From: Bacteroidales bacterium | GTDB taxonomy: Bacteria > Bacteroidota > Bacteroidia > Bacteroidales > FEN-979 | Assembly (NCBI GenBank): GCA_028706295.1 | Contig: JAQWBQ010000005.1 | Location: forward strand, 11,395-75,394 | Direction of reading: 5' to 3' | Length of the DNA: 64,000 nucleotides | The notes under the pieces: model-generated | Database searches by the model: none | Seen by the model: the letters and a program-made list of their open reading frames with translations, nothing else | What the model was told of the DNA's origin: nothing | Program-made: the position numbers and the translations under genes | In this document: positions 26,421 through 57,740 of the stretch, piece by piece | How the letters are laid out: the number at the start of each line of letters is the position of its first letter | Numbering within the stretch: position 1 is the stretch's first letter

Positions 26421-26438
26421 TTGTTAAGTTAATCACAA
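26421..26438. promoter_or_regulatory. Rex-type operator, distal site (TTGTTAA-GTTA-ATCACAA)
   Basis: 18-bp imperfect palindrome matching the Rex consensus TTGTGAA-N4-TTCACAA (clostridial variant TTGTTAA-N4-TTAACAA). Lies in the AT-rich region upstream of hydrogenase operon 1. Confidence 0.55.
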
Positions 26439-26465
26439 AAGAAAATAATAAATTTGCTAAAAAAA

Positions 26466-26483
26466 TTGTTAATCTTTTCACAA
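26466..26483. promoter_or_regulatory. Rex-type operator, proximal site (TTGTTAA-TCTT-TTCACAA)
   Basis: One mismatch to TTGTGAA-N4-TTCACAA. Lies 54 nt upstream of the ATG at 26537. Confidence 0.65.
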
Positions 26484-31053: not shown

Positions 31054-31188
31054 GAGGTCCTCCTGTGTTTTAAATGATGTCGCAAATCTAAACTGTCTAA
31101 GCAGTTGAAAATGTTAATGTATCGTTAAATTCAGTTAAGGAATCGTTAATCTTGATGATTGGGGAACTCCTTTATTTACTTTTGTACC

Positions 31189-34239: not shown

Positions 34240-34662
34240 ATGCATTTTGAATACCATGTTGAAGGGGGAAATTTTTCTCAGGCCGGTTTTACCTCCAGTC
34301 AGGTTAAAAAAACACTGAAACAACTGAATGTCGATGGTGATGTGATCAGGCGAACGGTAATAGCGCTCTATGAAGCTGAAGTGAACATTGTGGCTCATGC
34401 TTACAAGGGTAAAATCGCCGTTGATATCGATCCTGAAAAAATCAGCATTTTATTAGACGATGAAGGACCGGGGATTCCCGATATTCAAAAGGCGATGGAA
34501 GTGGGTTATTCCACAGCCACTCCACAGGTCAGGGAGATGGGATTTGGGGCCGGGATGGGACTTTCGAACATGAAAAATAATTCCGACCGGCTCGATATCG
34601 ACAGTGTGGTCGGAAAAGGAACAAGAGTCATGATCATCAACTATTTCAACCCAACAAGATGA
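34240..34662 (+). CDS. GHKL-type ATPase / RsbW-SpoIIAB-like serine kinase (copy 1)
   Basis: 140 aa. EAEVNIVAHAY (N-box-like), DDEGPGIPD (G1), GFGAGMGLSNM (G2). No HisKA domain. Confidence 0.7.
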   Translation: MHFEYHVEGGNFSQAGFTSSQVKKTLKQLNVDGDVIRRTVIALYEAEVNIVAHAYKGKIAVDIDPEKISILLDDEGPGIPDIQKAMEVGYSTATPQVREMGFGAGMGLSNMKNNSDRLDIDSVVGKGTRVMIINYFNPTR

Positions 34663-36056
34663 CACAGGTTACCGGGTCTCATTTTCAACATGCACTTCAA
34701 TTCAGGGAAGATACCTGCATCGGATGCTCCCATTGCATGAATGTTTGTCCTACCGAAGCAATCCGTGTTTCATCGGGAAAAGCAAGACTTATACCTAACC
34801 GGTGTATCGATTGCGGAGAATGTTACCGCGTTTGTCCGGTTCGTGCCATCGTAGTGGAACAAGACGATTTTGAAGAGATTTACCGTTACCCTACACGTGT
34901 TGCACTAATCCCCGGCGTTTTCACTGGTCAGTTTCCCGACAGCGTCGGACCCGAACAGATAATCAGCGCCATTTATGAACTTGGATTTACCCATGTTGCC
35001 GAAGTCGAAGAAGGAGTAGAATTTCTCTGTAATCAAAGTAATAATTACATTGGAACCAACCGGGAAACCGCTCCTCTTATTTCATCATTCTGTCCGGCCA
35101 TCGTACGACTGATCCAGGTTAAGTTTCCCTCTCTCACCGGCAACATTATCCGGCTGAAGGCCCCTCTCGATATAACTGCCCTGACAATCCGGTATAATCT
35201 TTCAAAACAGGGTATCCCTCCCGAAGATATCGGAATCTTTTACGTTACCCCCTGTGCCGCAAAAATTGTGGCCGTGAAAAACCCCGTCGGCGAAGAACAT
35301 TCGGCCATTGACGGCGTACTCAACATGAATTTTGTTTACAATAAGGTTTTCCGGATACTCCGCCAAAAAAAAGGTACATCCGTCAACCTTCCTGACTCAG
35401 GGCTGACATCGCGTGCGGTGACCTGGAGCCTGACCCATGGCGAAGCCGACCATATGATGGCAGGGCGCAGCCTGGCAATCGATCAGATAAACAATGTAAT
35501 TGAATTCCTCGAAAAGATCGAAAATGAGGAAATCAGTGGGGTTGGATTCCTTGAACTACGAGCCTGCGACGAAAGCTGTGCAGGCGGAATCCTTTGCCCC
35601 GGTAATCGATTCCTTACAGTCGACAGACTGCGAAAGCGAGCCAGGGCGTTATCCGCTGTAAAACCGATATCAAACCATCGGGAGGAGCATTACCCGCAGG
35701 GTCTCTTTACCCATCTTCAGAATAATATGGAATTAGGTAAAATCCAGCCCAGGTCAATGATGAAACTTGATGATCAGGTGATGCAGGCCATGATTAAGAT
35801 GAAACGGATTTATGAGTTGAACAGCGTGTTGCCACAGGTTGATTGCGGAATTTGCGGATCACCTTCCTGCAAAGCATTGTCGGAGGATATCGTTCAGCAC
35901 AATGCCCACCTCCGTCAATGTATCTTTGTACAGCGGATTCTTGAACAAAATGATCAAATGGATCCGGCCGAGTCAATGAAAATCATGGCCGGCATCTGGA
36001 GTGACCAGAAACTGGATAAAAACAAATTAAAGGATAAAATCAATGATGTTTCATAA
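34659..36056 (+). CDS. HydS-like [FeFe]-hydrogenase-domain protein (S1): 2x[4Fe-4S] ferredoxin, degenerate H-domain and C-terminal 4-Cys domain, with no output domain
   Basis: 465 aa. CIGCSHCMNVCP and CIDCGECYRVCP. L1 is SSFCPAIV (35082-35096), L2 is VTPCAAK, L3 is ACDESCAGG (35565-35588). C-terminal CGICGSPSC...C. ATGA overlap with the upstream gene. Confidence 0.8.
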   Translation: MTQVTGSHFQHALQFREDTCIGCSHCMNVCPTEAIRVSSGKARLIPNRCIDCGECYRVCPVRAIVVEQDDFEEIYRYPTRVALIPGVFTGQFPDSVGPEQIISAIYELGFTHVAEVEEGVEFLCNQSNNYIGTNRETAPLISSFCPAIVRLIQVKFPSLTGNIIRLKAPLDITALTIRYNLSKQGIPPEDIGIFYVTPCAAKIVAVKNPVGEEHSAIDGVLNMNFVYNKVFRILRQKKGTSVNLPDSGLTSRAVTWSLTHGEADHMMAGRSLAIDQINNVIEFLEKIENEEISGVGFLELRACDESCAGGILCPGNRFLTVDRLRKRARALSAVKPISNHREEHYPQGLFTHLQNNMELGKIQPRSMMKLDDQVMQAMIKMKRIYELNSVLPQVDCGICGSPSCKALSEDIVQHNAHLRQCIFVQRILEQNDQMDPAESMKIMAGIWSDQKLDKNKLKDKINDVS

Positions 36057-36417
36057 AATCCATCCCGATATGAACCTGGCAGAACTTGTTGAAAAGCTTA
36101 ATTTATCAATTTTTTCGGGTAAGGAAGCATTGTCAAAGCCTGTTACAGGCGGTTATACTTCCGACCTTCTCAGTGATGTAATGGGGCATGCCGGACCCGG
36201 ACAGGTATGGATAACCCTTCAAACCCATAAGAATGTCGTTGCAATAGCATCACTTAAAGAATTATCGGCCATTATCCTTGTCAAAGGATATAAACCCGAC
36301 GATGAGATGCTTAGTCAAAGCATAGCGGAACGGATTCCGGTTTTAGGAACGACTCTTGAGACATTTGAAATAACCGGTCGTGTATTTATGTTGTTAAACA
36401 GAGATAATTCCGACTGA
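36043..36417 (+). CDS. DRTGG domain protein (copy 2)
   Basis: 124 aa. ...GGYTSDLLSDVMGH...ASLKELSAIILV... The start overlaps the end of S1. Alternative Met at 36070. Confidence 0.7.
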   Translation: MMFHKIHPDMNLAELVEKLNLSIFSGKEALSKPVTGGYTSDLLSDVMGHAGPGQVWITLQTHKNVVAIASLKELSAIILVKGYKPDDEMLSQSIAERIPVLGTTLETFEITGRVFMLLNRDNSD

Positions 36418-36470
36418 TTCCATTTCTGAGTGTTTACTGATTCATTGTATTGAAAAGCTATTTCGCACGA

Positions 36471-37220
36471 ATGAAATCGTTTATCGGTGATCTTCATATA
36501 CATACCGTTTTATCACCCTGCGGCGACCTTGAGATGAGCCCCGATAACATTATTCGTCGTGCGGCAGATTTGAATCTCGACATTATCGGCATTACCGACC
36601 ATAATAGCACCCGGCAATGTAACCTGATCAGACAAATGGGCGAGGATGCAGGTATTCTTGTTTTATGCGGTGCCGAGGTCACCTCACGCGAAGAGGTACA
36701 TTGTCTGACCTATTTTGAAACGCCTGCCCAGCTTGAAGAATTTCAGCATTATCTCGATCAGAACCTTCCGGATATCCCAAACGATCCGCGATTGTTCGGC
36801 CACCAGGTTGTGGTCGACGACATGAACAACATCATTTACACCGAAGAACGCTCCCTTCTCATGGCATTAACTCAGCGTCTGGATGAGATTGCATCTTGTG
36901 TGAGGCAATTACAAGGATTGTTCATTCCCGCCCATATCGACAGGCCAAGGTTCGGTATTTTAGGACAACTTGGATTTTTTCCGCAGGAATTGATGGTGGA
37001 TGCAGTAGAACTTTCGCCGAATTCAAATCAGGAAAGCCTTCGGGCATTGTTCCCGGATATTTTTAAGCATTCCTTTATAGGAGGATCGGATGCACATTTT
37101 CTCCACCATATGGGAACATGGAAAACCGTTTTTCGGATGCGGGAACCCAGTTTTGCCGAAATCCGTCGATGCTTGCACCGAAAGGCAGGACGCAGCGCTG
37201 TCATCGACACCTTAACCTGA
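36471..37220 (+). CDS. PHP-domain metal-dependent phosphoesterase
   Basis: GDLHIHTVLSPCGD, ITDHNS and GGSDAH motifs. ATG at 36471 is preferred over TTG at 36450. Confidence 0.75.
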   Translation: MKSFIGDLHIHTVLSPCGDLEMSPDNIIRRAADLNLDIIGITDHNSTRQCNLIRQMGEDAGILVLCGAEVTSREEVHCLTYFETPAQLEEFQHYLDQNLPDIPNDPRLFGHQVVVDDMNNIIYTEERSLLMALTQRLDEIASCVRQLQGLFIPAHIDRPRFGILGQLGFFPQELMVDAVELSPNSNQESLRALFPDIFKHSFIGGSDAHFLHHMGTWKTVFRMREPSFAEIRRCLHRKAGRSAVIDTLT

Positions 37221-37393: not shown

Positions 37394-37411
37394 TTGTGAA
37401 TTTTTTCACAA
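37394..37411. promoter_or_regulatory. Perfect Rex operator TTGTGAA-TTTT-TTCACAA
   Basis: Exact match to the 18-bp Rex consensus palindrome. Lies about 28 nt upstream of a TATCTTTG -7 box (37439-37446), i.e. around the -33 region of the operon 2 promoter. Confidence 0.75.
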
Positions 37412-37448
37412 AGTGAATAAAATAACAATAAAGTTTTTTATCTTTGCA

Positions 37449-37994
37449 ATGAAAAATTTATCAATGCATATTATGGACATCCTTCAGAATTCGATCCGGG
37501 CAGGTGCGACCGAAATATCGCTTGAGATCAGGGAGGATACGCTGCTGAACTTACTCCGGTTTAATATCAGCGATAACGGATGTGGTATGGCGCCGGATGT
37601 ATTGAAGAAGGTAACCGATCCGTTTTTCACGACGCGGACAACGCGTAAGGTCGGTTTGGGATTGTCGCTGTTAAGGCAAAACGCGGAGCGGTCGAATGGT
37701 TCTTTGAAAATCGATTCGGAAACCGGGAAAGGCACAGTGGTGGAAGCCTGTTTTGAATATAATCATATCGACCGGCCGGTGTTGGGCGACATTGCGGGCA
37801 CAGTTCTCCTGACGCTGACAGCGCACCCGGAAATCCAATTCCGCTACCTTCATAACAGGAATGGCCGATCTTTTGAATTATCCACCATCGCGTTGAAGGA
37901 TGCATTGTGCGGAATTCCGATCAATGAACCGGCGCTCTATCCCACCCTGCTTCAGATGGTGAAAGAGAACCTGAAAGATATTGATGTTAATTGA
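37449..37994 (+). CDS. GHKL-type ATPase (copy 2), no HisKA domain
   Basis: DILQNSIRAG (N-box), SDNGCGM (G1), KVGLGLSLL (G2), GKGT. The start is uncertain: GTG 37413, ATG 37449 or ATG 37464. Confidence 0.7.
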   Translation: MKNLSMHIMDILQNSIRAGATEISLEIREDTLLNLLRFNISDNGCGMAPDVLKKVTDPFFTTRTTRKVGLGLSLLRQNAERSNGSLKIDSETGKGTVVEACFEYNHIDRPVLGDIAGTVLLTLTAHPEIQFRYLHNRNGRSFELSTIALKDALCGIPINEPALYPTLLQMVKENLKDIDVN

Positions 37995-44069: not shown

Positions 44070-45254
44070 TCAGAAGAACTTCATGGTGACCTCTTTGAGG
44101 AATTTCTCTTCCAGGGTCCTGGCAATACGGTGTACCACCGTTCGGCGCAATTCAAGTTCCATGGGAAGGGTTGGATCCTGGTGGGCGATATTGATGTTTG
44201 TTCCCACAAGAAAATGAATTTCGTCACAATCGATAATAGTTTTAACAATTTCATCGGCTGGTCCCCTACCCAGGGTATAATTGTTGGTATACTTCTTCAA
44301 CAATTCGCTCACCTTGCTCAGAGTCAGGATTCCCTCTGTTATCAATTCCACCCCGTTCATATGGGAAACAGGTGGAAGTTCCTGGTCGAAACGTTCTTTC
44401 GAATCAATGATTTCCTCCTTCCATTCGCGGGCAACCATATCGGCCGTTGTTGCTCCGCAGATGATTTTTTTTCCGTCGAAATGTTTCAACAATTCCGTAA
44501 CCGTGTTATCATTTGATGGATCCACGGGCGGTCCGGTGAATATCATCAGTTTCCTGGGTTCGCGAAAGTACAATACCGAACAACTTATATCGTCGCGCGG
44601 GTGAAATCCGTCATTCAGATTGGCCTTATTGACAACCTTTGAAGCCAGATTCACCGCGGATATATCAGGTTCTTTCTTAATGGATTCTTCGATAAAATTC
44701 AGAAGGTTTTCTGCTCCCCATCCGGTGAGCATTTTATCGGATCCCAAACCGGATTGGGTCACCCCATCGGAGCAAAACACAATCCGGTCTTCCTTCTGAG
44801 GCCTGAAAGTGGCAGTAAGTACTTCACGGCCGGTATGTTTTTCACCCTCCAATACCACGCAGTTCCATTCAGGTTCATGAGGTCGTGATCCCCTGAAGAC
44901 CATGGTTCTTGGGTTTTCATATTCCAGGATTCGCACTTTCGTATCCGGGTCAATCTCGACGATGGTAAAAGTAGAGTAATTCATTTTTTTCACACTGTCG
45001 ACCGGGAGGGTGTTCATAATAATCTCCGAGATCTTCTGGATGGTCTTGTGTTCGCGTGTAAAATGTACTGCCATCACAGCCGTAAGGGTTCCAAGCATGT
45101 TGGCTTTGATCCCGTGACCCATACCATCGGAGAGTACGACAATAATGCGCCCTTCCTCTTTGATCCTTTTCGAAATGAAGACATCGCCGCAAACACGGGC
45201 TTCAGCGTGACATTTTTGCTGACAGGTTACTTCGATAAAGAATTTTTCATTCAA
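44070..45254 (-). CDS. PP2C/SpoIIE-family protein phosphatase with an extra ~170-aa C-terminal domain
   Basis: 394 aa. GDVF...VLSDGMGHGIKAN...FCSDGV motifs. Lies downstream of the PAS-containing HydS-like gene. Confidence 0.8.
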   Translation of the reverse strand: MNEKFFIEVTCQQKCHAEARVCGDVFISKRIKEEGRIIVVLSDGMGHGIKANMLGTLTAVMAVHFTREHKTIQKISEIIMNTLPVDSVKKMNYSTFTIVEIDPDTKVRILEYENPRTMVFRGSRPHEPEWNCVVLEGEKHTGREVLTATFRPQKEDRIVFCSDGVTQSGLGSDKMLTGWGAENLLNFIEESIKKEPDISAVNLASKVVNKANLNDGFHPRDDISCSVLYFREPRKLMIFTGPPVDPSNDNTVTELLKHFDGKKIICGATTADMVAREWKEEIIDSKERFDQELPPVSHMNGVELITEGILTLSKVSELLKKYTNNYTLGRGPADEIVKTIIDCDEIHFLVGTNINIAHQDPTLPMELELRRTVVHRIARTLEEKFLKEVTMKFF

Positions 45255-45356: not shown

Positions 45357-47252
45357 TTATTGTCTTTTTCCGGGAGGATTGGAGTAGGTTTCAATAACCG
45401 AGTTGAGCATCTGCTCTGATTTGGCAGCACCTTCGCCGAGCAGGTAAGCAATCTTTTGTACCATATCAAAATTTTCGTCAATCACCTCCTGAAGCCGGTT
45501 AACAATCTGTTCTTTTTGCAATTCAGGCATATACCGGTCACGCAGAATTCCCCCTACATATTTATGGCTGCGAAGGGGAAAAATCGAAACTCCCAGTTTG
45601 TTATCTCCGAACTGTACATCTCTGTTTTCAATGGATTCATCGGAGGAAAGCACATACGTGAACATTTTATAGAAATGGATCGGCAACAGCGACTTCAGGT
45701 CGGCCCCGACCAAACCGGGTATCACTTCATCGATCAGGGTGGCTTCCTCCCCGACAATTCTGATAAAGGCTTTATTCGACTGGTAGATTTTCAGATTTTC
45801 ATCTACAATCACGACTCCTGAAATCAGTTTTTGGAGCATGGTACTGATAATCTCTGAAGTTTCTTTCTGGGCTTCCTGTTCATGTTTAGCCTTTTCTTCA
45901 GATTCTTTGAGTGCGATTTTGGTTTTGGCGAGGTTTTCATTGGTAGTCCTGAGGGTCTGGATATACTCCTGGCGGTTTTTACCGCTAAATACATGGCACA
46001 TATCAGTGGTGGCAAGGCCCTGGGAGATGGCGATTGCAAGATCGCGGCAGCTTGAATACCCGCACGATTCGCAGCCAACATCGCCATGCAGGTGTGATTC
46101 GCGTTCGATCATTTTGAGAACTTCTGCAATCTTTTCCTCGTCAGGAACCGGTAGTCGTTGATCATCCGCAATAAATTGTCTTGAAAGGTCAAGTTCTTCA
46201 AAGGAATTAACATCGTGCTGCCAATCATCGAGATTCAGGGTCTTCAGCCGCTTATTTGCGTATTCCTTTACCAGGGTCATTCTCAGGAATTTTTCTCCTT
46301 TCGGGGAAGTGCCAGGCCCCATGATACACCCTTCATCATAAAATATGTTGAAATTCCTTTTGATCAGATCAATTCGCGATTCAAATTCCCTTACTGCATC
46401 GGTCATATTGATCCGGCCTTCAGTCGTAATTACGCTTCCCGACAGGAGGTCTTCGTTAATCCCGACTGCCTGGAGAATCCCGTTGCTGATTGGATAAAGC
46501 GATCCTTTTTGTCCGAGGGGAGGATCGAATTCAAAATATTCAAGCTGGCTTTCGCGGATATTGAATTGAGCAAACAGTTGCCTGAGTTCAACAAAAGTAA
46601 GGACCGCATCGACAGCCGATTCGCCTGTAAACCTTAATGCTTCGTCCTTGGTTGCAATGCAGGGACCAATGAAAACGATTCTGGTACCGGATCCATACCT
46701 TTGTCGGATCACCCGGGCTGTTGCGATCATCGGCGACACCAGGGGGGCAAGATTGTTGATCAGTTCGGGATGATACTTTTCTATAAAAGCCACAACAGAC
46801 GGGCAGTTGGAAGTGAAATAATATTTACCCCTGAAATTATCGAGCAGTTCTTTATACCGGGAAGCGATGAGGTCGACGCCGAAAGAGACTTCGCTTACAT
46901 AAGTAAAACCAAGTTCCCGGATCATTCCGACAAATTTCCGGTAATCGGTAATGTCGTGAAATTCGCCAGAAATGGCCGGATCACAAATGGCGGCAACCGG
47001 TTCTCCGGAATGGAGGAGTTCAATAGTCTGTTCAATGGAACTCCGGTATGAAATGGCTTGTGTTGAGCATGCCCGGTAGCAGCTTCCGCAACCAATACAA
47101 CGTTCCGGAAGGATCGAAGGAAATTCGGTGTTAACATCGACCCTGATGGCTTTAACCGGACAAATGCGAACGCAGGAATAACATTTAATGCATTGGTCAT
47201 GGGTTATCCGGAAAAGCGGTTCGTCTATCATTTCGGCATTTATAAAATTCAA
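45357..47252 (-). CDS. HydS-like sensory [FeFe]-hydrogenase homologue with a C-terminal PAS domain (S2)
   Basis: 631 aa. CIKCYSCVRICP and CIGCGSCYRAC. L1 is TSNCPS (46797-46814), L2 is GPCIATKDE, L3 is FYDEGCIMGPG (46311-46340). 4-Cys CESCGYSSC...C, a coiled-coil, then a PAS-like GVVIVDENLKIYQSNKAF. Confidence 0.8.
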   Translation of the reverse strand: MNFINAEMIDEPLFRITHDQCIKCYSCVRICPVKAIRVDVNTEFPSILPERCIGCGSCYRACSTQAISYRSSIEQTIELLHSGEPVAAICDPAISGEFHDITDYRKFVGMIRELGFTYVSEVSFGVDLIASRYKELLDNFRGKYYFTSNCPSVVAFIEKYHPELINNLAPLVSPMIATARVIRQRYGSGTRIVFIGPCIATKDEALRFTGESAVDAVLTFVELRQLFAQFNIRESQLEYFEFDPPLGQKGSLYPISNGILQAVGINEDLLSGSVITTEGRINMTDAVREFESRIDLIKRNFNIFYDEGCIMGPGTSPKGEKFLRMTLVKEYANKRLKTLNLDDWQHDVNSFEELDLSRQFIADDQRLPVPDEEKIAEVLKMIERESHLHGDVGCESCGYSSCRDLAIAISQGLATTDMCHVFSGKNRQEYIQTLRTTNENLAKTKIALKESEEKAKHEQEAQKETSEIISTMLQKLISGVVIVDENLKIYQSNKAFIRIVGEEATLIDEVIPGLVGADLKSLLPIHFYKMFTYVLSSDESIENRDVQFGDNKLGVSIFPLRSHKYVGGILRDRYMPELQKEQIVNRLQEVIDENFDMVQKIAYLLGEGAAKSEQMLNSVIETYSNPPGKRQ

Positions 47253-47322: not shown

Positions 47323-47357
47323 TTGTTTATTTTTTCACATTGATAATTTTTTCACAA
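47323..47357. promoter_or_regulatory. Two abutting Rex-like operators in the divergent S2 / operon 3 control region
   Basis: 47323-47340 is TTGTTTA-TTTT-TTCACAT. 47340-47357 is TTGATAA-TTTT-TTCACAA. Each has an intact or near-intact TTCACA(A) half-site. Confidence 0.55.
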
Positions 47358-47387: not shown

Positions 47388-47395
47388 TATTTTTG
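47388..47395 (+). promoter_or_regulatory. -7 promoter box (TATTTTTG) for hydrogenase operon 3
   Basis: Matches TAnnTTTG, 27 nt before the ATG at 47422. The Rex-like sites lie just upstream. Confidence 0.45.
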
Positions 47396-47421: not shown

Positions 47422-47889
47422 ATGAACAAGGAGGTACCGGTACATATTCTTGAAAAGTACCCGGCCGGAAAAAGGGATGGATTGATCCCAATCCTGATGG
47501 AGATCCAGGATGAAAAGGGATTTCTTTCGGAAGAGGTATTTCAAGAAGTCGGCAGGTATTTGAATATTCCTGCTAACAAGGTTTATTGTGTTGCTACTTT
47601 TTATGATCGGTTCAGGTTTAAGCCCGCGGGGCGTTATTTAATTCAGATGTGCCGAGGCACCGCCTGTTATCTGTCAGGATCAACCACTTATCTGGATGAA
47701 TTTGTAAGACAGCTAAAGGTGAGTCCGGGCGGGACCAGTAAAGACAGGCGATACAGTCTGGAAGTCACGAGTTGCATGGGCGCTTGTGACTCTGCACCTG
47801 TCATCCGCATCAATGATAAAATTTATTCCAGGGTAACTCCGGAGGACCTGGTTCGGATCATCCGGTCGCTCAAAGAAAAAACCGAGTAA
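47422..47889 (+). CDS. hydC: NuoE/HydC-like [2Fe-2S] subunit (operon 3)
   Basis: 155 aa from the ATG at 47422. CRGTAC ... CMGAC Cys pattern. Confidence 0.85.
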   Translation: MNKEVPVHILEKYPAGKRDGLIPILMEIQDEKGFLSEEVFQEVGRYLNIPANKVYCVATFYDRFRFKPAGRYLIQMCRGTACYLSGSTTYLDEFVRQLKVSPGGTSKDRRYSLEVTSCMGACDSAPVIRINDKIYSRVTPEDLVRIIRSLKEKTE

Positions 47890-47890
47890 G

Positions 47891-49840
47891 ATGGTTGTCG
47901 TTAATACAACAGAACAAAAGGAGTTTCTCACCGAAAAGGTACTGAAGAATTATTCCAGTGTATTTGATAAAGCCACATCCGATCGTCTTTCGCTGATAAA
48001 AAGGGAGCGGATAGATCATTCTGTGATCTATGTCGGAATGGGTACCTGCGGCATTACCGCGGGGTCAGCAAAGACTTACGATGCGATTCAAAGATATTGT
48101 AAGAATCACAACCCGGAGGCAGAAATCATCCGGGTCGGATGCATTGGCATGTGTTCGGCGGAGCCGCTCATGGATGTCCAGTTACCGGGAAAGACCAGGA
48201 TCTCTTTCCATCATGTCACGGAGGACCTGGTGGAAGACATTCTGAACTCTGTTTTTCACCGGAGCCTCTCCACCGACCATGTTTTAGGGCAATTCAAATC
48301 GCAATCGCAGGAGGTTTGGCCAAACATCCCGTTTATCGATCAACTCCCGTTTTTTGCAAAACAACACCGGATCGTAACGCGTAATGCAGGGATTATTTCG
48401 CCCAATAGTATTGATGATTATTTGGCTTCCGGCGGTTACAAGTCATTATATAAGACTGTGTTGAATTACACGGCCGACAAGGTATGTGATATTATCACGC
48501 AGAGTGAATTGCGTGGGCGTGGCGGAGGGGGGTATCCGACAGGAAAAAAATGGATGATGGCCCTGGGTACCGGCAGTGATCAAAAGTATTTGATATGCAA
48601 TGCAGACGAAAGCGATCCGGGGGCATTCATGAACCGTTCAATTATCGAGGGTGATCCACACAGAGTTATTGAGGGAATTGCCATTGCTTCCTATGCCATC
48701 GGTGCAAACAATGCATATATCTACCTCCGTGCCGATTATGAACAGCCACATACCTTATTGCTCAAAGCCATTGATGATGCCAGGGAATACGGATTTCTGG
48801 GTGAGAATATTTTTGGAAGTGGTTTTAATCTGAAAATCCACATCAGGCTTGGGGCCGGAGCTTTTGTTTGCGGAGAAGAGACCGCATTGATTGCAAGTCT
48901 TGAAGGCAAGCAGGGAATTCCTCAATCGAAGCCCCCGTATCCTGCTGAAAAGGGGCTATTCGGCCATCCAACGGTTGTCAATAATATCGAAACGCTTGCC
49001 AATGTCCCTTCGATCCTTGAAAACGGGCCTTCGTGGTTCAAATCGACCGGGATCAGGGACAACCGGGGGACCAAAATCTTCTGCATTTCCGGGAAGGCAG
49101 TAACAACAGGCTTTGCAGAGGTACCTATCGGTTCAAAACTTTCAGATCTGGTGACCGGGATTGGTGGCGGAGTCAGGGATGGGAAAAAACTGAAAGCAGT
49201 TCAATTCGGTGGACCTTCCGGAGTCTGCATTCCTACGCAAAACCTTGATATGGAGATCAGTTATGAGTCGATGCAGGAAATCGGTTCTTCATTAGGGTTG
49301 GGTGGTTTGATCCTGTTGGACGAAGAAACCTGCATGGTCAGTCTTTCGAAATATTTTATGCAGTTCCTGCAGCATGAAAGCTGCGGAAAGTGCATTCCCT
49401 GCCGGGAAGGCACACGGAGGATGTTGCAGATCCTTGATGAGATAAGTCGCAGGCCCCGCGAAGAGAGTTCCCATGAGACCCTGGAACGGTTCAAAGGAGT
49501 TGTTGAGTTGGAGCGACTGGCTTCGGTGATCAAAGACACCTCACTCTGTGGTTTGGGCCAGAATGCCCCAAATCCTGTCATTTCCTCGTTAAAGTGGTTC
49601 CGTGAAGAGTACGAAGAGCATATTTTCGACCGAAAGTGTCAGGCTGGTGTCTGCCGGGATCTCAGGACGTTTTATATCAATGCGGACCTTTGCAACGGAT
49701 GTAATCTTTGTCAGCGTAAGTGTCCCGAAAACGCAATTATCGGGACCGTCAAATACCCGCATTTCATCATTGAGTCAAAATGTACAGGTTGCGGGATCTG
49801 TTTTGATGTTTGTAAGTTTAATGCAATCTATTTCAAGTAA
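47891..49840 (+). CDS. hydB: Full-length HydB/NuoF-like subunit with an extended N-terminus (operon 3)
   Basis: 649 aa. GTCG...GCIGMC, ELRGRGGGGYPTG, GAFVCGEETAL, CGKCIPCR, CNGCNLCQRKCP, CTGCGICFDVC. Confidence 0.9.
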   Translation: MVVVNTTEQKEFLTEKVLKNYSSVFDKATSDRLSLIKRERIDHSVIYVGMGTCGITAGSAKTYDAIQRYCKNHNPEAEIIRVGCIGMCSAEPLMDVQLPGKTRISFHHVTEDLVEDILNSVFHRSLSTDHVLGQFKSQSQEVWPNIPFIDQLPFFAKQHRIVTRNAGIISPNSIDDYLASGGYKSLYKTVLNYTADKVCDIITQSELRGRGGGGYPTGKKWMMALGTGSDQKYLICNADESDPGAFMNRSIIEGDPHRVIEGIAIASYAIGANNAYIYLRADYEQPHTLLLKAIDDAREYGFLGENIFGSGFNLKIHIRLGAGAFVCGEETALIASLEGKQGIPQSKPPYPAEKGLFGHPTVVNNIETLANVPSILENGPSWFKSTGIRDNRGTKIFCISGKAVTTGFAEVPIGSKLSDLVTGIGGGVRDGKKLKAVQFGGPSGVCIPTQNLDMEISYESMQEIGSSLGLGGLILLDEETCMVSLSKYFMQFLQHESCGKCIPCREGTRRMLQILDEISRRPREESSHETLERFKGVVELERLASVIKDTSLCGLGQNAPNPVISSLKWFREEYEEHIFDRKCQAGVCRDLRTFYINADLCNGCNLCQRKCPENAIIGTVKYPHFIIESKCTGCGICFDVCKFNAIYFK

Positions 49841-49845
49841 CCGGC

Positions 49846-51564
49846 ATGCAATTCAATATTGAGATCAATAATCAGCAGGTATCGGCAAAGCGGGGCGAGA
49901 CCATTAAAAATGTGCTGGATCGTATCGGGATCAATATTCCCACATTGTGTTATATGAATGGTTTCTCACCTTCGGGTGGGTGCAGGATGTGTGTTGTGGA
50001 GATCGAGGGTATACCGGGACTTGTTCCGGCCTGTTCGCATCCGGTCAGTGAGTGGATGAAGATCAGGACTCACTCCCCCAAAGTATTAAAGGCCAGAAAA
50101 GTTATTGTAGAACTCCTTCTGGCAAGTCATCCTGACGATTGTTTGTATTGTGAGCGGAGCGGAGCGTGTCGTTTACAGGAACTGGCGGTTGAAATGGACA
50201 TTCACGATCGAAAGTACCATGGAAAGCGGGAGATTATTCCGATCGATAAAGCGTGTCCTTCGGTCATAAGAGATCCTGAGAAGTGTGTGCTTTGCGGTCG
50301 TTGTATCCGTGTGTGTGACGAGGTGATCGGGGTTTCAGCGATAGATATTGTCGGCAGAGGATCGGAAAGCAGGATAGGCACCTCGTACAACAAGGGATTG
50401 AATATGCAAACCTGTGTAAAATGCGGTCAATGTATTATGGTTTGCCCGACCGGAGCGTTGACTGAGCGGTCGTCACTGACAAGTGTCGTGGAGGCACTGA
50501 ATAATCCGGAACTCTTTCCGGTGATCCAGTTCTCTCCTACCGTCCCTGCTTCGATTGCTGAGGAATTCAATCTCAAGGCCAGTAAGGATATTTTAAATAT
50601 TGTCAGGGCAGCGTTGAAACGGATAGGGTTCCGGCAGGTATTCGACACCTCCATGGCGGCCGATCTGCATATCATGGAAGAGGCAGCTACTTTTGTAGAG
50701 CGTCTCAATTCAAATGGTCCCTTACCCCTGCTGACCTCCTGTTGTCCTTCCTGGGTCAGGTATGTTGAAGAGCTTTACCCCTCACTTATCCCAAATCTTG
50801 CCACACCACGGTCACCGCAACAGATCATGGGCAGGATGATCAAAAACTATATTGCCAGTTCAGCAGGGATTAAGCCTGAGAGTGTCTTTGTTGTGTCTGT
50901 TATGCCCTGTACTGCAAAAAAATATGAATCCGGACAGGATATAGGGAAAGAGGGCTCTTACCGGTTTGTTGATGCCGTGCTTACCACCCGCGAACTGAAT
51001 AAAATCATCAGGTTGCTTGGGATCGATTTCAGCGCCCTGGAGCCTGAGCCAAGCGATACTGCCTTCAGTATGCGCAGCTCGGCCGGAAATCTGTTCGGGG
51101 TTTCAGGAGGTCACCTGGAAGGGCTGATGCGTACGATACATTTTATGTTGACAGGTCAGGAGATGAGTCCCCTGAAACTTATGGAGTTGCGGGGTTTAAA
51201 GAACAGGAAAGAGGCGCGGGTCAAGATCGGTAAGGCGATCTTCCCGGTTGTTGCCGTTAACGGTCTCGCTCAGATGAAACCAATAATGGATGAAATTATC
51301 TCGCAAAAGAATGCGTTCAAGATCATTGAGGTTATGGCTTGTCCTTTTGGCTGTATAAACGGCGGAGGACAAAAGCTAAACCCGGATGAGAAGAATCTGA
51401 AATCACGGATGAAAGCATTATATGATGTGGATGAGGAAGAGATGATCAAGGTATCACATAAGAATCCGATCGTCAATGATCTGTATGATAAATTTCTTGG
51501 AAAGCCCGGGAGTGACAGAAACCGGGAGATCCTGCATGTTTCACGCAATACCGATAAGGAGTAA
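49846..51564 (+). CDS. hydA: [FeFe]-hydrogenase catalytic subunit (operon 3)
   Basis: 572 aa. TSCCPSW (50734-50754), MPCTAKKYE, EVMACPFGCINGGGQ, plus N-terminal 2Fe-2S and 4Fe-4S motifs. Confidence 0.9.
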   Translation: MQFNIEINNQQVSAKRGETIKNVLDRIGINIPTLCYMNGFSPSGGCRMCVVEIEGIPGLVPACSHPVSEWMKIRTHSPKVLKARKVIVELLLASHPDDCLYCERSGACRLQELAVEMDIHDRKYHGKREIIPIDKACPSVIRDPEKCVLCGRCIRVCDEVIGVSAIDIVGRGSESRIGTSYNKGLNMQTCVKCGQCIMVCPTGALTERSSLTSVVEALNNPELFPVIQFSPTVPASIAEEFNLKASKDILNIVRAALKRIGFRQVFDTSMAADLHIMEEAATFVERLNSNGPLPLLTSCCPSWVRYVEELYPSLIPNLATPRSPQQIMGRMIKNYIASSAGIKPESVFVVSVMPCTAKKYESGQDIGKEGSYRFVDAVLTTRELNKIIRLLGIDFSALEPEPSDTAFSMRSSAGNLFGVSGGHLEGLMRTIHFMLTGQEMSPLKLMELRGLKNRKEARVKIGKAIFPVVAVNGLAQMKPIMDEIISQKNAFKIIEVMACPFGCINGGGQKLNPDEKNLKSRMKALYDVDEEEMIKVSHKNPIVNDLYDKFLGKPGSDRNREILHVSRNTDKE

Positions 51565-53546
51565 TGGGACATACCTATCACCGGCAGCTTGTTTTCACGA
51601 TCAAGGATCGTTGCCGGGTATGTTTTACCTGTGTAAGGGAATGTCCGGTAAAAGCCATTAAGATCATCAATGGTCAGGCAGAGGTGTTAAACGACCGTTG
51701 TATCGGATGTGGCAATTGTGTGAGGGTTTGCAGCCAGGGCGCCAAGGTTCCCCTGAGATCGGTTGAGGCTGTGGAGAATCTTTTACAATCGGGATCGAAG
51801 ATCGCCGCTTGTTTAGCGCCGAGTTTTCCGGCAGAGTTTACCGAAATCCGTGAACCCGGGCTGATGGCAGGAATGATCCGCGCATTGGGGTTTGATTATG
51901 TCAGCGAGGTTTCGTTCGGGGCCGATCTCGTTGCGCTGCAATATGAAAAAATGATCAAAGGCAGTGGCACAGAGGGTTCGATCTCTTCAGATTGTCCTGC
52001 CATCGTTTATTTTATCCGACACTATCATCCTGATCTGGTAAAATCACTGGCGCCCATCGTATCACCCATGCTTGCGATGACCCGGGTTATGAAAAAAAAA
52101 TACGGTGAAGATCTGAAGGTGGTTTTCATCGGGCCTTGTTTTGCCAAAAAGGCCGAATCACTTGAGGTTGACGAGGTTCTGACTTACATGGAACTCCGCG
52201 AGATGTTGGTAAAACGGGGGATCACGCCTGAAAAGGTAGTTCCCTCACCTTTTGACCCACCCCACAGCGGTAAAGGGTCTATTTTTCCAGTCAGCCGGGG
52301 GTTGTTTTACACGGCCAATAATCAGGAATCGATTCCTGAGGAACGAGTTATCATTGCAGAAGGGCGCGAGCATTACAAGGCTGCCATCAATGAGTTTGAA
52401 GAGGGATCAATCCGCGACAAACAATTAATGCTTTTGTGTTGTGACGGTTGTATCATGGGGCCCGGAACATCACCGGGTGGCAAACGATATATTCGGAGTG
52501 CCGCTGTTGGCGATTATGTGAAAAACAAGATCAAAAAGATCGATGAGGAATCCTGGAACAATGATATCCGGGAATTTCTCGAACTCGATTTTTCACAAAG
52601 CTTTGTTCCGGAAGACAGACGGCTTTCGCCTCCCAGCGCTGATGATGTATTAGAAGCCTTACATTCGATGGGAAAATTCTCGCCGATGGATCACCTGAAT
52701 TGCGGAGCTTGTGGTTATGATACCTGTGTGGATCATGCCAGCGCCATCGTAACGGGTCTTGCCGAGTCGGAGATGTGTCTCCCTTATGCCATTGAGAAGC
52801 TGCACACCTCGATCAGTTCCCTCAACCTGACCCATGAAAAGCTCGCGAAAGCCAAGGCAGCGCTCAAACAATCGGAAAAACTGGCCCACATGGGACAATT
52901 GTCGGCCGGTATCGCACATGAATTGAATAATCCGTTGGGTGTAATTACGATGTACAGCAACATCCTGATGGACGAAGCGCCCGATGGAGATCCTGTCCGC
53001 GAGGATTTAAAACTTATCGTTGAGCAGGCTGACCGGTGTAAAAAAATCGTCAGTGGTTTGTTGAATTTCGCCAGAAAAAATCAGGTAACTCTTTCTGAGA
53101 CCGATGTAATCAAATTTACCCAACACAGCCTGAACTCCATTGTCAAGCCCGATTCTGTCAACTTTCAGTTTACATCGGGTATTGAGAATCCTATAGCTTA
53201 TTTGGATATTGATCAGATGATGCAGGTATTGACGAACCTGGAGAAAAACGCGATAGAGGCGATGCCCGAAGGGGGAACGCTGAAAGTCGGAGTGGAAGGC
53301 GATGATTCGGAAGTTACATTTATTGTTTCCGACACGGGAATCGGAATCCCCAAGGAAAACATGGACAAGCTTTTCACTCCCTTCTTCACGACCAAAGAGA
53401 TGGGAAAGGGAACCGGATTGGGGCTTGCATTGATATACGGCATTGTTAAAATGCATAAAGGGAAAATTCACGTCGATTCGGTTTCTGATCCCGCTGAAGC
53501 GCCTACCGGGACCACGTTCAGGATTACAATTCCCCGTGGAACATAG
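51564..53546 (+). CDS. HydS-like sensory [FeFe]-hydrogenase homologue fused to a histidine kinase (S3)
   Basis: 660 aa. CFTCVRECP and CIGCGNCVRVC. L1 is SSDCPAIV (51984-51998), L2 is GPCFAKKAE, L3 is CCDGCIMGPG (52437-52466). 4-Cys CGACGYDTC...C. H-box SAGIAHELNNP and HATPase GTGLGLALIYG. The start overlaps the hydA stop (TAATG). Confidence 0.85.
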   Translation: MGHTYHRQLVFTIKDRCRVCFTCVRECPVKAIKIINGQAEVLNDRCIGCGNCVRVCSQGAKVPLRSVEAVENLLQSGSKIAACLAPSFPAEFTEIREPGLMAGMIRALGFDYVSEVSFGADLVALQYEKMIKGSGTEGSISSDCPAIVYFIRHYHPDLVKSLAPIVSPMLAMTRVMKKKYGEDLKVVFIGPCFAKKAESLEVDEVLTYMELREMLVKRGITPEKVVPSPFDPPHSGKGSIFPVSRGLFYTANNQESIPEERVIIAEGREHYKAAINEFEEGSIRDKQLMLLCCDGCIMGPGTSPGGKRYIRSAAVGDYVKNKIKKIDEESWNNDIREFLELDFSQSFVPEDRRLSPPSADDVLEALHSMGKFSPMDHLNCGACGYDTCVDHASAIVTGLAESEMCLPYAIEKLHTSISSLNLTHEKLAKAKAALKQSEKLAHMGQLSAGIAHELNNPLGVITMYSNILMDEAPDGDPVREDLKLIVEQADRCKKIVSGLLNFARKNQVTLSETDVIKFTQHSLNSIVKPDSVNFQFTSGIENPIAYLDIDQMMQVLTNLEKNAIEAMPEGGTLKVGVEGDDSEVTFIVSDTGIGIPKENMDKLFTPFFTTKEMGKGTGLGLALIYGIVKMHKGKIHVDSVSDPAEAPTGTTFRITIPRGT

Positions 53547-53653
53547 GTTGAATGAACCAGTCCGGCAAATTTGTGATCTGTTATGCAAGGAAGGCCGCAC
53601 GGGAGGTGGCAGAGATAAAATGAATTTTAAATGCGAATAAAAATTTTTACAAT

Positions 53654-54055
53654 ATGGCACCGGTAAATAAAACCATTTTAATTGTTGATGATGATCAGGA
53701 TTATTTGTTTCAGCTTAAAATGAAGGTTGAAAAGTTTGGGTACAAGACGATCACAGCCGACAGCCAAGAGGAAGCTGAGGAATTACTGGAGCGGATCAAG
53801 CCTGATCTTGCGATCCTTGATCTTATGATGGAGAAGGAGGACAGCGGATTCATCCTGTGTTACCGGATGAAGAAAAAATATCCCGATGTCCCCATCATCA
53901 TCGCCACGGGTGTTGCGGCTGAAACGGGGATCATTTTTGACATTCAGGATGAGAACAACCGTAAATGGATCAAGGCTGACCGTTTCCTTGACAAAGGAAT
54001 CAGGTCGGAGCTCCTGAAGATGGAGATTGAAAAGCTTTTACAGAAACCTAATTGA
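53654..54055 (+). CDS. Single-domain response regulator (receiver only)
   Basis: 133 aa. ILIVDDD...DLAILDLMM...IIATG. No output domain. Confidence 0.85.
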   Translation: MAPVNKTILIVDDDQDYLFQLKMKVEKFGYKTITADSQEEAEELLERIKPDLAILDLMMEKEDSGFILCYRMKKKYPDVPIIIATGVAAETGIIFDIQDENNRKWIKADRFLDKGIRSELLKMEIEKLLQKPN

Positions 54056-54160
54056 AACAGCATACTACCTAAAAGAGCAGTATTGGACAATCTAAATGTG
54101 AACCACATGGCAAATCACCGGTGAGGATCCCTGTCCGGAATTTTTTGGAAAAATTAAATT

Positions 54161-55294
54161 ATGGCAACATTAAAAATACTGGTAGTTGATGATGAGCCCG
54201 GCATCCGAAGCGGTGTAAGCCGGATCCTGAGAAATTTCAGGGTTGATTATCCTTTCATGGATGAGCCCTTCGATTTTGAAGTTCTCGAAGCAGCCACCGG
54301 GGAGGAAGGAATTGAGATTATTGAATCGAATCCTCCCGATATCCTGCTGCTCGATAACAAACTCCCCGGCATCCAGGGTGTTGAGGTCCTTGAATATATC
54401 AAGAAGAAGCAAATCAGCATCATTGTGGTCATGATCACTTCCTATGCATCGCTTGAGCTTGCGGTGAAGGCAACCAGTGACGGGGCTTATGACTTCATTC
54501 CAAAACCATTTACCCCGCAGGAGTTGAAGTCCTCGGTCGAGAATATCACGAAAAGGGTTTTTCTTAAAAAGATGACGACCCGGCTGCAGGATACCGGGAA
54601 GCAGATCCGTTTTACTTTTTTATCTGTACTCTCCCACGAGCTGAAAGCGCCGTTAAATGCTATTGAAGGATATCTGAAGATGATCAAAGAGCGGCAAAAC
54701 GGAATCCAGTTAGCCGATTACGACGTAATGATCGATCGCTCCCTGGAACGGATCAAAGGGATGAGAACCCTGATCCTTGACTTGTTGGATCTTACCCGCG
54801 TGGAATCGGGCAAAGCCAAACGGAACATTACACGGGTCGATCTTGTGTCAATCGCACGTACGGCCATGGACACGATGCGGCCCTATGCCATTCAGCGGGA
54901 TGTCGTATTGAATTTGCAGACCCGTGAGCCGGTTGAAATGGACGCGGACAGCGAAGAGCTGGAAATTATTTTCAATAATTTGATTTCCAATGCAATAAAA
55001 TATAACCGTGATGGAGGCAGGGTTGATTGTTTGATCGAACCCGGTGACGGGAAATTGGTGATCCAGGTCACCGATACCGGTATCGGGATGACACCTGCAG
55101 AGATCGAAAAGATCTTTGATGATTTTGTCCGGATCAAGAATGAAAAGACCAAGAATATAACCGGAACCGGACTGGGTTTGTCGATTGTCAAGAAACTTAT
55201 TGACCATTATAACGGCCGGATCGAAGTTGTGAGCAATCCGGATGCCGGCAGTACCTTCAAAGTTATTCTTCCAACTGTAAAACCATGTTCATAA
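54161..55294 (+). CDS. Hybrid receiver-histidine kinase (REC-HisKA-HATPase)
   Basis: 377 aa. ILVVDDE...ILLLDNKLPG, H-box LSHELKAPLNAI, DTGIGM, GTGLGLSIV. Confidence 0.85.
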   Translation: MATLKILVVDDEPGIRSGVSRILRNFRVDYPFMDEPFDFEVLEAATGEEGIEIIESNPPDILLLDNKLPGIQGVEVLEYIKKKQISIIVVMITSYASLELAVKATSDGAYDFIPKPFTPQELKSSVENITKRVFLKKMTTRLQDTGKQIRFTFLSVLSHELKAPLNAIEGYLKMIKERQNGIQLADYDVMIDRSLERIKGMRTLILDLLDLTRVESGKAKRNITRVDLVSIARTAMDTMRPYAIQRDVVLNLQTREPVEMDADSEELEIIFNNLISNAIKYNRDGGRVDCLIEPGDGKLVIQVTDTGIGMTPAEIEKIFDDFVRIKNEKTKNITGTGLGLSIVKKLIDHYNGRIEVVSNPDAGSTFKVILPTVKPCS

Positions 55295-55926
55295 GAAATT
55301 TACCCCATAAAACCGTTGAGCGCCTGAGTCAGTACCGTCGCTCCTTATTGATGACCCTTTCAAAAGAAAAAACCCATGTTTTTTCTCATGAAATTGCGCA
55401 GATGCTCCACATCACTCCTGTTCAGGTCAGACGTGACCTGATGCTGATCGGCTACTCGGGAAACCTAAGAAAAGGTTATGACATCAAGGAGTTGATTGAT
55501 CTGATCGGAAAAATCATAGATTCGGACCGGGGTCAGCGGGTTGCTGTGGTCGGGCTCGGAAATCTCGGGAAGGCAATGATCAGCTATTTTAAGGGGAAAA
55601 GATCGAAACTGGCAATCATTGCAGCCTTTGACATCAATCCGGAGAAGATCAACCGGATTTACGACGGGGTTGCCTGCTACCATGTAAGCCAGCTGACCGA
55701 TATCATCAGGCAAAACAACATTTCAATCGGAATCATTTCGGTTCCTTCGGAGCAGGCGCCTGAAATAGCCGAGACCATGGTATTGGCAGGGATCAAGGGA
55801 ATTCTTAATTTCACACCCAAACCCCTGAATGTACCTGCCTTTGTTTACCTTGAGGAGTATGACATGATAACTTCTCTGGAGAAAGTAGCTTTCTTTGCCA
55901 AGAAAAATGATGAACGATTTAAGTAG
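55285..55926 (+). CDS. rex: Redox-sensing transcriptional repressor Rex
   Basis: 213 aa. Winged helix (VERLSQYRRSL...ITPVQVRRDL..IGYSG..RKGY) plus Rossmann motif VVGLGNLGKA and GIKGILNFTP. The start overlaps the upstream kinase by 10 nt. Confidence 0.85.
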   Translation: MFIRNLPHKTVERLSQYRRSLLMTLSKEKTHVFSHEIAQMLHITPVQVRRDLMLIGYSGNLRKGYDIKELIDLIGKIIDSDRGQRVAVVGLGNLGKAMISYFKGKRSKLAIIAAFDINPEKINRIYDGVACYHVSQLTDIIRQNNISIGIISVPSEQAPEIAETMVLAGIKGILNFTPKPLNVPAFVYLEEYDMITSLEKVAFFAKKNDERFK

Positions 55927-55937
55927 AAAGGGATTTA

Positions 55938-57652: not shown

Positions 57653-57714
57653 GGCAATACCATCCCTGGTGTCTTTTTCCCTAAAATTCTTTTTGAGAAA
57701 TTAGTTTTGCCCTA

Positions 57715-57722: not shown

Positions 57723-57740
57723 TCCTCTTATAAAAAATGA

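Follow-up and report, generated by a model that had tools for sequence, protein, structure and literature searches.

How anaerobes sense H2 and tune their electron-bifurcating hydrogenases is still an unresolved question, and we know of no [FeFe] sensory hydrogenase with a demonstrated signalling output. The HydDB classification has a group C of sensory hydrogenases, in which C1 is labeled 'histidine kinase-linked (putative)' and C3 'phosphatase-linked' (PMC5037454), although these labels have been used inconsistently (PMC11406978). A 2024 study described a group C protein bearing a histidine kinase, named 'BfuT', whose gene comes next after the catalytic one in Hydrogenedentota and Calditrichota ('sub-type V', bfuCBA-bfuT), and, for Perlabentimonas, Tenuifilum, and Williamwhitmania, a second sensor of the PAS type that is encoded upstream of the NuoE-like gene (PMC11406978). 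A Cx2Cx4Cx16C motif and the replacement of the proton-relay Cys, Met353, and Met497 serve as criteria for the sensory enzymes of types M2e and M2f (PMC8163306). With respect to the redox-sensing repressor Rex, a rex-hydCBA operon with an upstream Rex box is present in Caldithrix abyssi (PMC5317091), and in Ruminococcus albus and Solidesulfovibrio a bifurcating hydrogenase has been suggested to be under the control of Rex together with HydS (PMC10084766, PMC5707799). Here we analyze a sensory-type hydrogenase fused to a histidine kinase (HydS-HK), together with the two receiver (REC) proteins (REC133 and REC/HK) and the Rex encoded behind it, in a 64,000-nucleotide stretch of DNA from a Bacteroidales bacterium (assembly GCA_028706295.1, contig JAQWBQ010000005.1, positions 11,395 to 75,394), the whole of which is called the window below. 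We suggest, with moderate confidence, that the locus is a Rex-controlled operon for a HydABC-type bifurcating hydrogenase that carries its own H2-sensing two-component circuit, the two inputs acting in parallel.

HydS-HK and its receiver partners

Domains were assigned with Pfam, and residue conservation was read from alignments of 76-81 sequences, the HydS-HK set being the window protein and 80 orthologs. HydS-HK contains two N-terminal [4Fe-4S] clusters (Fer4, residues 13-60) and an Fe_hyd_lg_C domain (PF02906, residues 79-300, E=4e-42), which are followed in the C-terminal part by an FeS motif (PF04060, 377-407), HisKA (443-506), and HATPase_c (548-658). The motifs SSDCP, GPCFAKKAE, and CCDGCIMGPG and the two kinase domains, all noticed in the first-pass annotation, were found again in the sequence and with Pfam. 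That annotation also called the H-domain degenerate. The domain has substitutions of the sensory type: Asp143 (SSDCP) takes the place of the group A proton-relay Cys (C299 of CpI), Gly190 (GPCFAKK) that of Met353, and a Leu (LLCCDGC) that of Met497, whereas HydA2 and HydA3 of the window have TSCCP, MPC, and MAC. Compared with these two proteins, the remaining proton-pathway residues are not retained either. However, 'degenerate' is an overstatement and a decayed H-domain was ruled out, because the four cluster-ligating Cys (Cys144, Cys192, Cys292/293, and Cys296) are all intact and at least 95% conserved in the 81 sequences.

Behind the H-domain, the cluster motif C380x2C383x4C388x16C405 leads through a helical linker to the H-box with His452, and no PAS domain was found between the cluster motif and the kinase. 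The H, N, G1, F, and G2 boxes read AHELNNPLG, NLEKNAIEA, DTGIGI, FTPFFTTK, and GKGTGLGL, and the kinase core resembles that of AtoS/ZraS. Across HydS-HK and its partners (76-81 aligned sequences), conservation is at least 95% for the residues that ligate the H-cluster, for the His and Asp residues that accept the phosphoryl group, and for the ATP-binding boxes. By sequence criteria HydS-HK is a sensory-type [FeFe] hydrogenase of HydDB group C, with a signalling module (HisKA and HATPase) fused to it and a gene that adjoins hydCBA in 76 of 80 loci. In the Bacteroidales family (81 sequences), conservation of the Asp at the proton-relay position (codon at window positions 51990-51992) is at least 95%; in distant kinase-fused representatives this position is taken by Pro, Ala, Thr, or Ser, never by Asp. 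Cys-to-Asp is the sole substitution at this position reported to keep activity in group A enzymes. An AlphaFold2 model of HydS-HK from a 10-sequence alignment had a mean predicted local distance difference test score of 54.6 and was too poor for use.

The two proteins encoded downstream complete what may be a signalling chain. REC133 has the key residues Asp12/13, Asp56, Thr85, and Lys113 and an extended beta4-beta5 region, but no output domain. REC/HK joins a receiver (Asp64) to a kinase with His158 and intact N, G1, F, and G2 boxes (SHELKAPLN, NLISNAIKY, DTGIGM, FDDFVRI, and GTGLGLS from the H-box onward), the core of which is PhoR/PnpS-like. The first-pass annotation had listed a receiver-only protein, a REC-HisKA-HATPase protein, and a Rex whose gene overlaps the preceding one by 10 nucleotides (nt), and had noted that the receivers lack output domains and that Rex is the only DNA-binding protein of the unit; the Pfam assignments and the coordinates agree with it on every one of these points. 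Its term 'phosphorelay' is not borne out in the strict sense. Pfam gave no Hpt family match in any of the four proteins, and the second His sits in a kinase with an intact ATPase; because there is no Hpt domain, we prefer 'two-kinase cascade' as the safer term.

The order of transfer within the cascade was approached from two sides. The REC/HK receiver scores slightly best against the receivers of LuxO, AtoC, and NtrX, the differences being small (68 bits for LuxO versus 62 for PhoB), and its alpha1 helix, with a variability of 0.63 bits, compares with 0.45 and 0.59 bits in the two His helices and with 1.56 bits in alpha1 of REC133. Based on this family resemblance and on the contrast between a frozen and a variable alpha1 helix, we tentatively propose that the REC/HK receiver is the primary acceptor and that REC133 is the substrate of the second kinase. 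Assignment of kinase-receiver pairs from family resemblance as such was given up in view of the small score differences and kept as a weak hint. Covariation at the kinase-receiver interface was judged uninformative because the His helices are nearly invariant. The REC/HK receiver also carries an insertion, RVDYPFMDEPFDF, between alpha1 and beta2 (residues about 26-38; window 54236-54274), which is at least 70% conserved at most positions among 76 sequences. A literature search on the receiver and REC/HK partners of HydS returned nothing relevant.

A search with HydS-HK yielded more than 7000 homologous proteins at E<1e-10, of which the best 120 are 72-100% identical to it and nearly all full length; at least 540 species-level genomes encode a relative. 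Among the best 150 clusters (50% identity), about 30 are full-length fusions with 32-51% identity. Synteny was compared in 80 loci from species-level Bacteroidales genomes that carry hydS-HK relatives. The order hydC-hydB-hydA-hydS(HK)-REC-REC/HK is kept in the 80 loci wherever the contig is long enough: REC is present in 78 and REC/HK in 75 of them, and all misses fall at contig ends. The median intergenic gaps in this core module are 24 nt and 44 nt, and the conserved order supports the earlier view that sensor and catalytic hydrogenase belong to one tightly packed unit.

Based on the flanking genes, the loci fall into two types. In type 1 (at least 25 loci, including the closest relatives of the window's), a divergent pair encoding a PAS-like HydS and a PP2C phosphatase lies upstream and rex-ribF-MBL-trmD downstream. 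In type 2 (at least 29 loci; for example L025, L027, L055, and about 30 others, at positions about 5200-5750 and 13500-17300), the upstream gene encodes a receiver-only protein of 172 amino acids (REC172), a paralog of REC133 in which a long insertion separates beta4 from beta5, the downstream genes are hydG-hydF-hydE, and there is no adjacent rex. Where rex is adjacent, the 10-nt overlap with REC/HK is exact in 22 of 34 loci and the gap never exceeds 23 nt; in two further loci (L044 and L051), REC/HK directly adjoins ribF and rex is missing. Rex is thus lineage-specific, whereas the trio of HydS-HK, REC, and REC/HK is an invariant partner of the hydrogenase. Rex as part of the conserved core was ruled out, since it is absent from the hydGFE-type loci.

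The hydrogenase itself is of the bifurcating kind as judged from solved structures: the best matches of HydB3 include bifurcating HydB (7q4v_B, 8e-180; 8a6t_B, 2e-172), and that of HydA3 is 8a6t_A, 'electron bifurcating hydrogenase subunit HydA1' (2e-149, full length). At the junction between hydA3 and hydS-HK, the open reading frame map bears out the TAATG stop/start overlap pointed out earlier, and the same 1-nt overlap is seen in the gene calls of two other loci (L081 and L082). The overlap at the other end is formed by the rex ATG at 55285 and the REC/HK TAA at 55292-55294; independent gene calls of a 91%-identical relative reproduce both overlaps. Contrary to the first-pass annotation, the gene string does not end in rex: ribF starts 11 nt past rex with no terminator-like site found between them, and the co-directional string continues. 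The block of rex, ribF (encoding a flavin adenine dinucleotide synthetase/riboflavin kinase), an MBL-fold hydrolase gene, and trmD lies on one strand (55938-58430 past rex) and is kept in relatives. It had also been pointed out that a strong internal terminator would speak against a shared transcript; in a scan of 44000-58500, no terminator-like site was found in the spacers before REC133 and REC/HK. In the same region, terminator and promoter consensus counts were at the level of shuffled sequence, the sigma-70 consensus being uninformative for Bacteroidetes, and Rfam gave no family match. We presume that the genes are co-transcribed.

Rex and its candidate operators

The window Rex is canonical. 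It was compared with NCBIfam NF003995 and with solved structures in addition to Pfam, and it scores 198 bits against the former (cut-off 126 bits), contains the N-terminal winged-helix domain (PF06971), the Rossmann NAD(H) domain (PF02629), and the motif GLGNLG, and aligns end to end with the solved Rex structures 5zz5, 2vt2, and 1xcb, down to E=3e-32. It has the standard length of 213 amino acids, without an extra domain or insertion.

Candidate operators were searched with the consensus TTGTGAAnnnnTTCACAA (4-nt spacer), and sites with up to 3 mismatches were counted. Five of the eight matches in the window are located in the three hyd promoter regions (binomial P = 9e-10). Two of them, at 47323-47340 and 47340-47357, stand in tandem in the divergent promoter region between the gene of the PAS-like HydS and hydC3. 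The element downstream of them matches TAnnTTTG, which we take to be the -7 promoter consensus of Bacteroidetes. Because the listed GTG start of hydC3 (47395) sits inside this element, it is disfavored as probably too early, and the ATG at 47422 is the likely start. The perfect box ahead of the second hydrogenase operon is followed about 28 nt downstream by the -7-like element TATCTTTG, and the two boxes upstream of hydC1 (26421-26438, 2 mismatches; 26466-26483, 1 mismatch) flank the -7-like element TAAATTTG.

The relatives present the same picture. Ten aligned hydC upstream regions have the conserved block TTTGTTTATTTATTCACATTGCTAATTTTTTCACAA in common, followed about 30 nt later by TAtTTTTG, a -7-type element. 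Of 29 rex-adjacent loci, 25 carry Rex boxes upstream of hydC, where their density is 2.1 per kb versus 0.13 per kb elsewhere. In the rex-less lineage, similar boxes are found upstream of the first gene of the operon, flanking the -7 element, in 12 of 23 loci; Rex control would therefore be older than the adjacency of rex. A Rex pattern with a 6-nt spacer gave 7 matches versus 5.6 expected, which is the chance level. From these footprints, all three hydABC operons of the window look Rex-controlled.

Control of the operon: proposed circuit and alternatives

According to the parallel reading, Rex would, while the ratio of NADH to NAD+ is low, bind 47323-47357 over the -33 region of the hydC3 promoter and repress hydC3B3A3-hydS(HK)-REC-REC/HK-rex and, probably, the divergent pair of PAS-like hydS and PP2C genes; NADH would release it. 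With rex placed last among the regulatory genes of the unit, the loop would be one of negative autoregulation. The same Rex would hold the two other hydABC operons through 26421-26483 and 37394-37411. Independently of this, H2 would reduce the H-cluster of HydS-HK, electrons would pass to the C-terminal Cx2Cx4Cx16C cluster beside the dimerization/His helix, and reduction of that cluster would shift the balance of autokinase and phosphatase at His452. The phosphoryl group would most likely move to Asp64 of the REC/HK receiver and thereby gate the second kinase, which would phosphorylate REC133 at Asp56. The final output might be a protein-to-protein action of REC133, or it might lie with an orphan DNA-binding regulator encoded at another genomic site. 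Neither of the conserved locus types has a terminal response regulator with an output domain, REC133 and REC172 being receiver-only, and because neither encodes a DNA-binding regulator with a receiver, we expect the output outside the locus or at the protein level. The two inputs are taken to be parallel and not convergent because the trio persists in at least 29 loci with hydGFE downstream and no adjacent rex.

Several points weigh against this circuit. To our knowledge, neither H2 binding nor autophosphorylation has been demonstrated for any kinase-fused HydS. The order of phosphotransfer is drawn from a weak family resemblance and from conservation patterns. The hydC3 boxes are 2 and 3 positions off the consensus and lie in AT-rich DNA, and a literature search found no Rex regulon or experimentally defined Rex operator in Bacteroidota. 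The spacers before REC133 and REC/HK (107 nt and 105 nt) exceed those of most relatives and could hold internal promoters. The exact 10-nt overlap between REC/HK and rex could, as a weak hint, imply a tie closer than 'parallel'.

Among the alternatives, control at the level of the enzyme survives best, although we consider it rather unlikely. HydS-HK would then be a fourth subunit or tight partner of HydABC ('BfuT'), and the receivers would tune activity or direction post-translationally, as effectors or phosphate sinks, with no transcriptional output. The stop-start overlap of hydA and hydS and the linkage of the two genes in all loci suggest stoichiometric co-production, and both locus types are without a DNA-binding response regulator, type 2 even adding the receiver-only REC172. 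The protein has also been treated as subunit 'T' of the cluster (PMC11406978). However, the solved HydABC complexes matched here are without such a subunit, and the complete catalytic kinase core of REC/HK suggests a relay and not a mere sink. One could go further and suppose that the output-domain-free trio acts through contacts of REC133 with HydABC, the PP2C/PAS-HydS branch, or Rex, setting hydrogenase activity or direction within seconds, and that Asp143 makes the sensor a catalytically competent H2 probe that equilibrates fast, unlike TmHydS; this is speculative and, in our view, distinctly unlikely.

It is improbable that the PhoR-like REC/HK acts remotely, by phosphorylating a DNA-binding regulator elsewhere that controls the hyd genes, such as the OmpR-type regulator at 33044-33760. 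This regulator is encoded in the same island, 20 kb upstream, and belongs to the OmpR family, from which the partners of PhoR/PnpS-type kinases, the closest to the REC/HK core, are drawn; however, its gene overlaps that of its own kinase (31159-33069) by 26 nt, which makes the latter its obvious cognate partner. The regulator scan, which covered the larger open reading frames of the window (at least 150 amino acids), revealed no other regulator with a receiver domain, and no conserved non-Rex motif was identified upstream of the operon.

A convergence on Rex, in which phosphorylated REC133 or REC/HK would bind Rex and alter its DNA binding so that H2 and NADH are integrated on one repressor, is very improbable: no protein of the unit apart from Rex binds DNA, the receivers all lack an output domain, and the close junction with REC/HK (10-nt overlap in 22 of 34 rex-adjacent loci, gap of at most 23 nt) would couple their synthesis, but Rex is of standard length with no added domain or insertion, the trio is intact in at least 29 loci without an adjacent rex, REC/HK is followed by ribF without rex in L044 and L051, and we know of no precedent of a response regulator acting on Rex. 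The first-pass annotation had raised both possibilities, a pathway that converges on Rex and one that parallels it; convergence is disfavored by a standard Rex with its own boxes and a trio conserved without rex, and it is the parallel version that fits the data.

The hydrogenase island and known systems

The features discussed here are collected in Table 1. The window holds three operons of the NuoE/NuoF/HydA type (26537-30019, about 37400-42600, and 47395-51564) and three sensor-like H-domain proteins, including HydS-HK. In the first 26 kb, the larger open reading frames that were scanned proved to be housekeeping genes, with no further regulator among them.

Table 1. Genes and sites of the hydrogenase island, in window coordinates
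Feature	Position	Strand	Description
hydC3	47422..47889	+	NuoE-like [2Fe-2S] subunit; Pfam 2Fe-2S_thioredx, E=2e-47; 155 amino acids in the gene call of a relative
hydB3	47891..49840	+	NuoF-like flavin mononucleotide/NAD subunit with C-terminal ferredoxin domains
hydA3	49846..51564	+	Catalytic [FeFe] hydrogenase subunit; canonical TSCCPSW, MPCTAKKYE, MACPFGCINGGGQ
TAATG overlap, hydA3/hydS-HK	51562..51566	+	TAA 51562-51564, ATG 51564-51566 (1-nt overlap)
hydS-HK	51564..53546	+	660 amino acids; sensory-type [FeFe] hydrogenase (by sequence) fused to histidine kinase
REC133	53654..54055	+	133 amino acids; Pfam Response_reg only; single-domain response regulator
REC/HK	54161..55294	+	377 amino acids; Response_reg, HisKA, HATPase_c
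rex	55285..55926	+	213 amino acids; redox-sensing repressor
Tandem Rex-like operators	47323..47357	.	TTGTTTATTTTTTCACAT and TTGATAATTTTTTCACAA, one T in common; 3 and 2 mismatches to TTGTGAAnnnnTTCACAA
-7 element	47388..47395	+	TATTTTTG; read from sequence; 30 nt downstream of second Rex box; conserved in alignment
Perfect Rex operator	37394..37411	.	TTGTGAATTTTTTCACAA; ahead of second hydrogenase operon
Two Rex-like operators	26421..26483	.	Upstream of hydC1
PAS-like HydS	45357..47252	-	631 amino acids; PAS-like C-terminal region (sub-threshold PAS match)
PP2C/SpoIIE-type Ser/Thr phosphatase	44070..45254	-	Pfam SpoIIE, E=3e-15; downstream of PAS-like HydS, adjacency conserved
Kinase	31159..33069		N-terminal 400 amino acids without Pfam match; overlaps OmpR-type regulator gene by 26 nt
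OmpR-type regulator	33044..33760		Between hydABC1 and group D-like HydS
Group D/M2e-like HydS	34659..36056		465 amino acids; SSFCP, TPCAAK
DRTGG protein	36043..36417		Third sensor module
PHP-like protein	36450..37220		Third sensor module
HATPase-only protein	37413..37994		First gene of second hydrogenase operon

The PAS-like HydS co-occurs with a downstream rex in 25 loci, and its promoter region, with the Rex boxes, is common to hydC3. At residues about 304-308 it reads FYDEGC, versus FYC[HE]GC in distant orthologs and LCCDGC in HydS-HK; the Cys ligand of [4Fe-4S]H is replaced by Asp, and all close relatives have Asp or Asn there. Judged from this substitution, the protein may bind an altered cluster or none.

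A third sensor module (31159-37994) precedes hydB2/hydA2/hydC2. The second hydrogenase operon consists of the HATPase-only gene, a ferredoxin gene, hydB2, hydA2, and hydC2. Its hydA2 likely starts at ATG 40239; the listed TTG 40152, probably too early, is disfavored because it would overlap hydB2 by 74 nt and the gene call of a relative has 590 amino acids.

In the first operon, residue 311 of HydA1 (28226-30019) lies in TSCSPGW, versus TSCCPxW in HydA2 and HydA3, so that a Ser is aligned to the Cys ligand of the H-cluster's [4Fe-4S] part (C300 of CpI). The NuoF-like partner of HydA1 (27026-28192) is short, with 388 amino acids, and is without ferredoxin domains. HydA1 may be a catalytic subunit that is unusual or inactive, or its sequence may contain a sequencing error; a literature search for the TSCSP motif returned nothing relevant.

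The HydS-HK family offers a good experimental handle on H2 sensing, with a sensor fused to a kinase, a simple read-out, and invariant partners encoded next door, and, with matches in more than 540 species-level genomes, it is common among Bacteroidales from the environment and from digesters. Through the operator footprints, the concept of the Rex regulon is extended to Bacteroidales, and joint repression of three hydABC operons in a single genome, governed by NADH/NAD+ status, is predicted. No concept is changed by these results; they refine a system that was catalogued but uncharacterised. A HydS fused to a histidine kinase beside hydABC, including the two-sensor layout of Bacteroidota, is already published, as are rex in a hyd operon and the idea of dual control by Rex and HydS. 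What appears to be unreported is the invariant pair of REC and REC/HK, the Asp that this clade has at the proton-relay position, and the Rex boxes, with their footprints ahead of three hydABC operons of one Bacteroidales genome; together with the two alternative contexts, these are modest new points.

Among the systems described so far that come close to the window is the variant of Bacteroidota with two bfuT genes, the layout of which is identical. In the bfuCBA-bfuT paper, the terms 'response regulator' and 'Rex' each have 0 occurrences (PMC11406978), whereas here REC and REC/HK are invariant and Rex is lineage-specific. Among putative sensory hydrogenases, HydS-HK resembles TmHydS of Thermotoga maritima (M2f, group C) and TamHydS (M2e, group D) in its two N-terminal [4Fe-4S] clusters, all Cys ligands, the replacement of the proton-relay Cys and of Met353 and Met497, the Cx2Cx4Cx16C motif, and its position beside a trimeric group A3 hydrogenase (PMC8163306). 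The Met353 position is Gly in both HydS-HK and TmHydS. Unlike TmHydS, HydS-HK has HisKA-HATPase instead of PAS directly after the C-terminal cluster, and Asp at the proton-relay position.

The Rex part of the locus resembles the hydrogenase regulons of Firmicutes, Thermotogae, Caldithrix abyssi (PMC5317091), and Caldicellulosiruptor bescii (PMC6391272) in its canonical Rex and in boxes of the TTGTGAAnnnnTTCACAA type at hydABC. As in known Rex regulons with hydrogenases, rex lies inside an operon that it would itself control. Unlike in the known Rex-hyd operons, rex is the last regulatory gene and not the first, the boxes are tandem with a 17-bp offset, and the host belongs to Bacteroidales.

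HupUV-HupT-HupR of Rhodobacter capsulatus follows the same logic of H2 sensor to kinase as HoxBC-HoxJ-HoxA; both are [NiFe] regulatory hydrogenase systems, and in both, sensor and kinase are separate and the pathway ends on an NtrC-type DNA-binding regulator. In HoxBC-HoxJ-HoxA of Cupriavidus necator, as is proposed here, a hydrogenase-like H2 sensor acts through a histidine kinase, there on hydrogenase expression (HoxJ/HoxA: PMC5707799). Unlike in the Hox and Hup systems, the H-domain of HydS-HK is of the [FeFe] type and fused to the kinase, the metal site and the protein family are different, and no NtrC-type regulator was found, so the likeness is a functional analogy only. Multi-kinase circuits with stand-alone receivers are known from CheA3-CheS3 of Rhodospirillum centenum, LvrA/LvrB of Leptospira, RedCDEF of Myxococcus, and DivJ/PleC-DivK. 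Like the window, such circuits combine a first kinase, a second kinase of the REC-HisKA-HATPase type, and a lone receiver in a cluster without an output domain. LvrB is among the matches to the window kinases; the match is a generic one to the kinase core and does not imply orthology. What sets the window apart from these circuits is its input, which is a hydrogenase domain.

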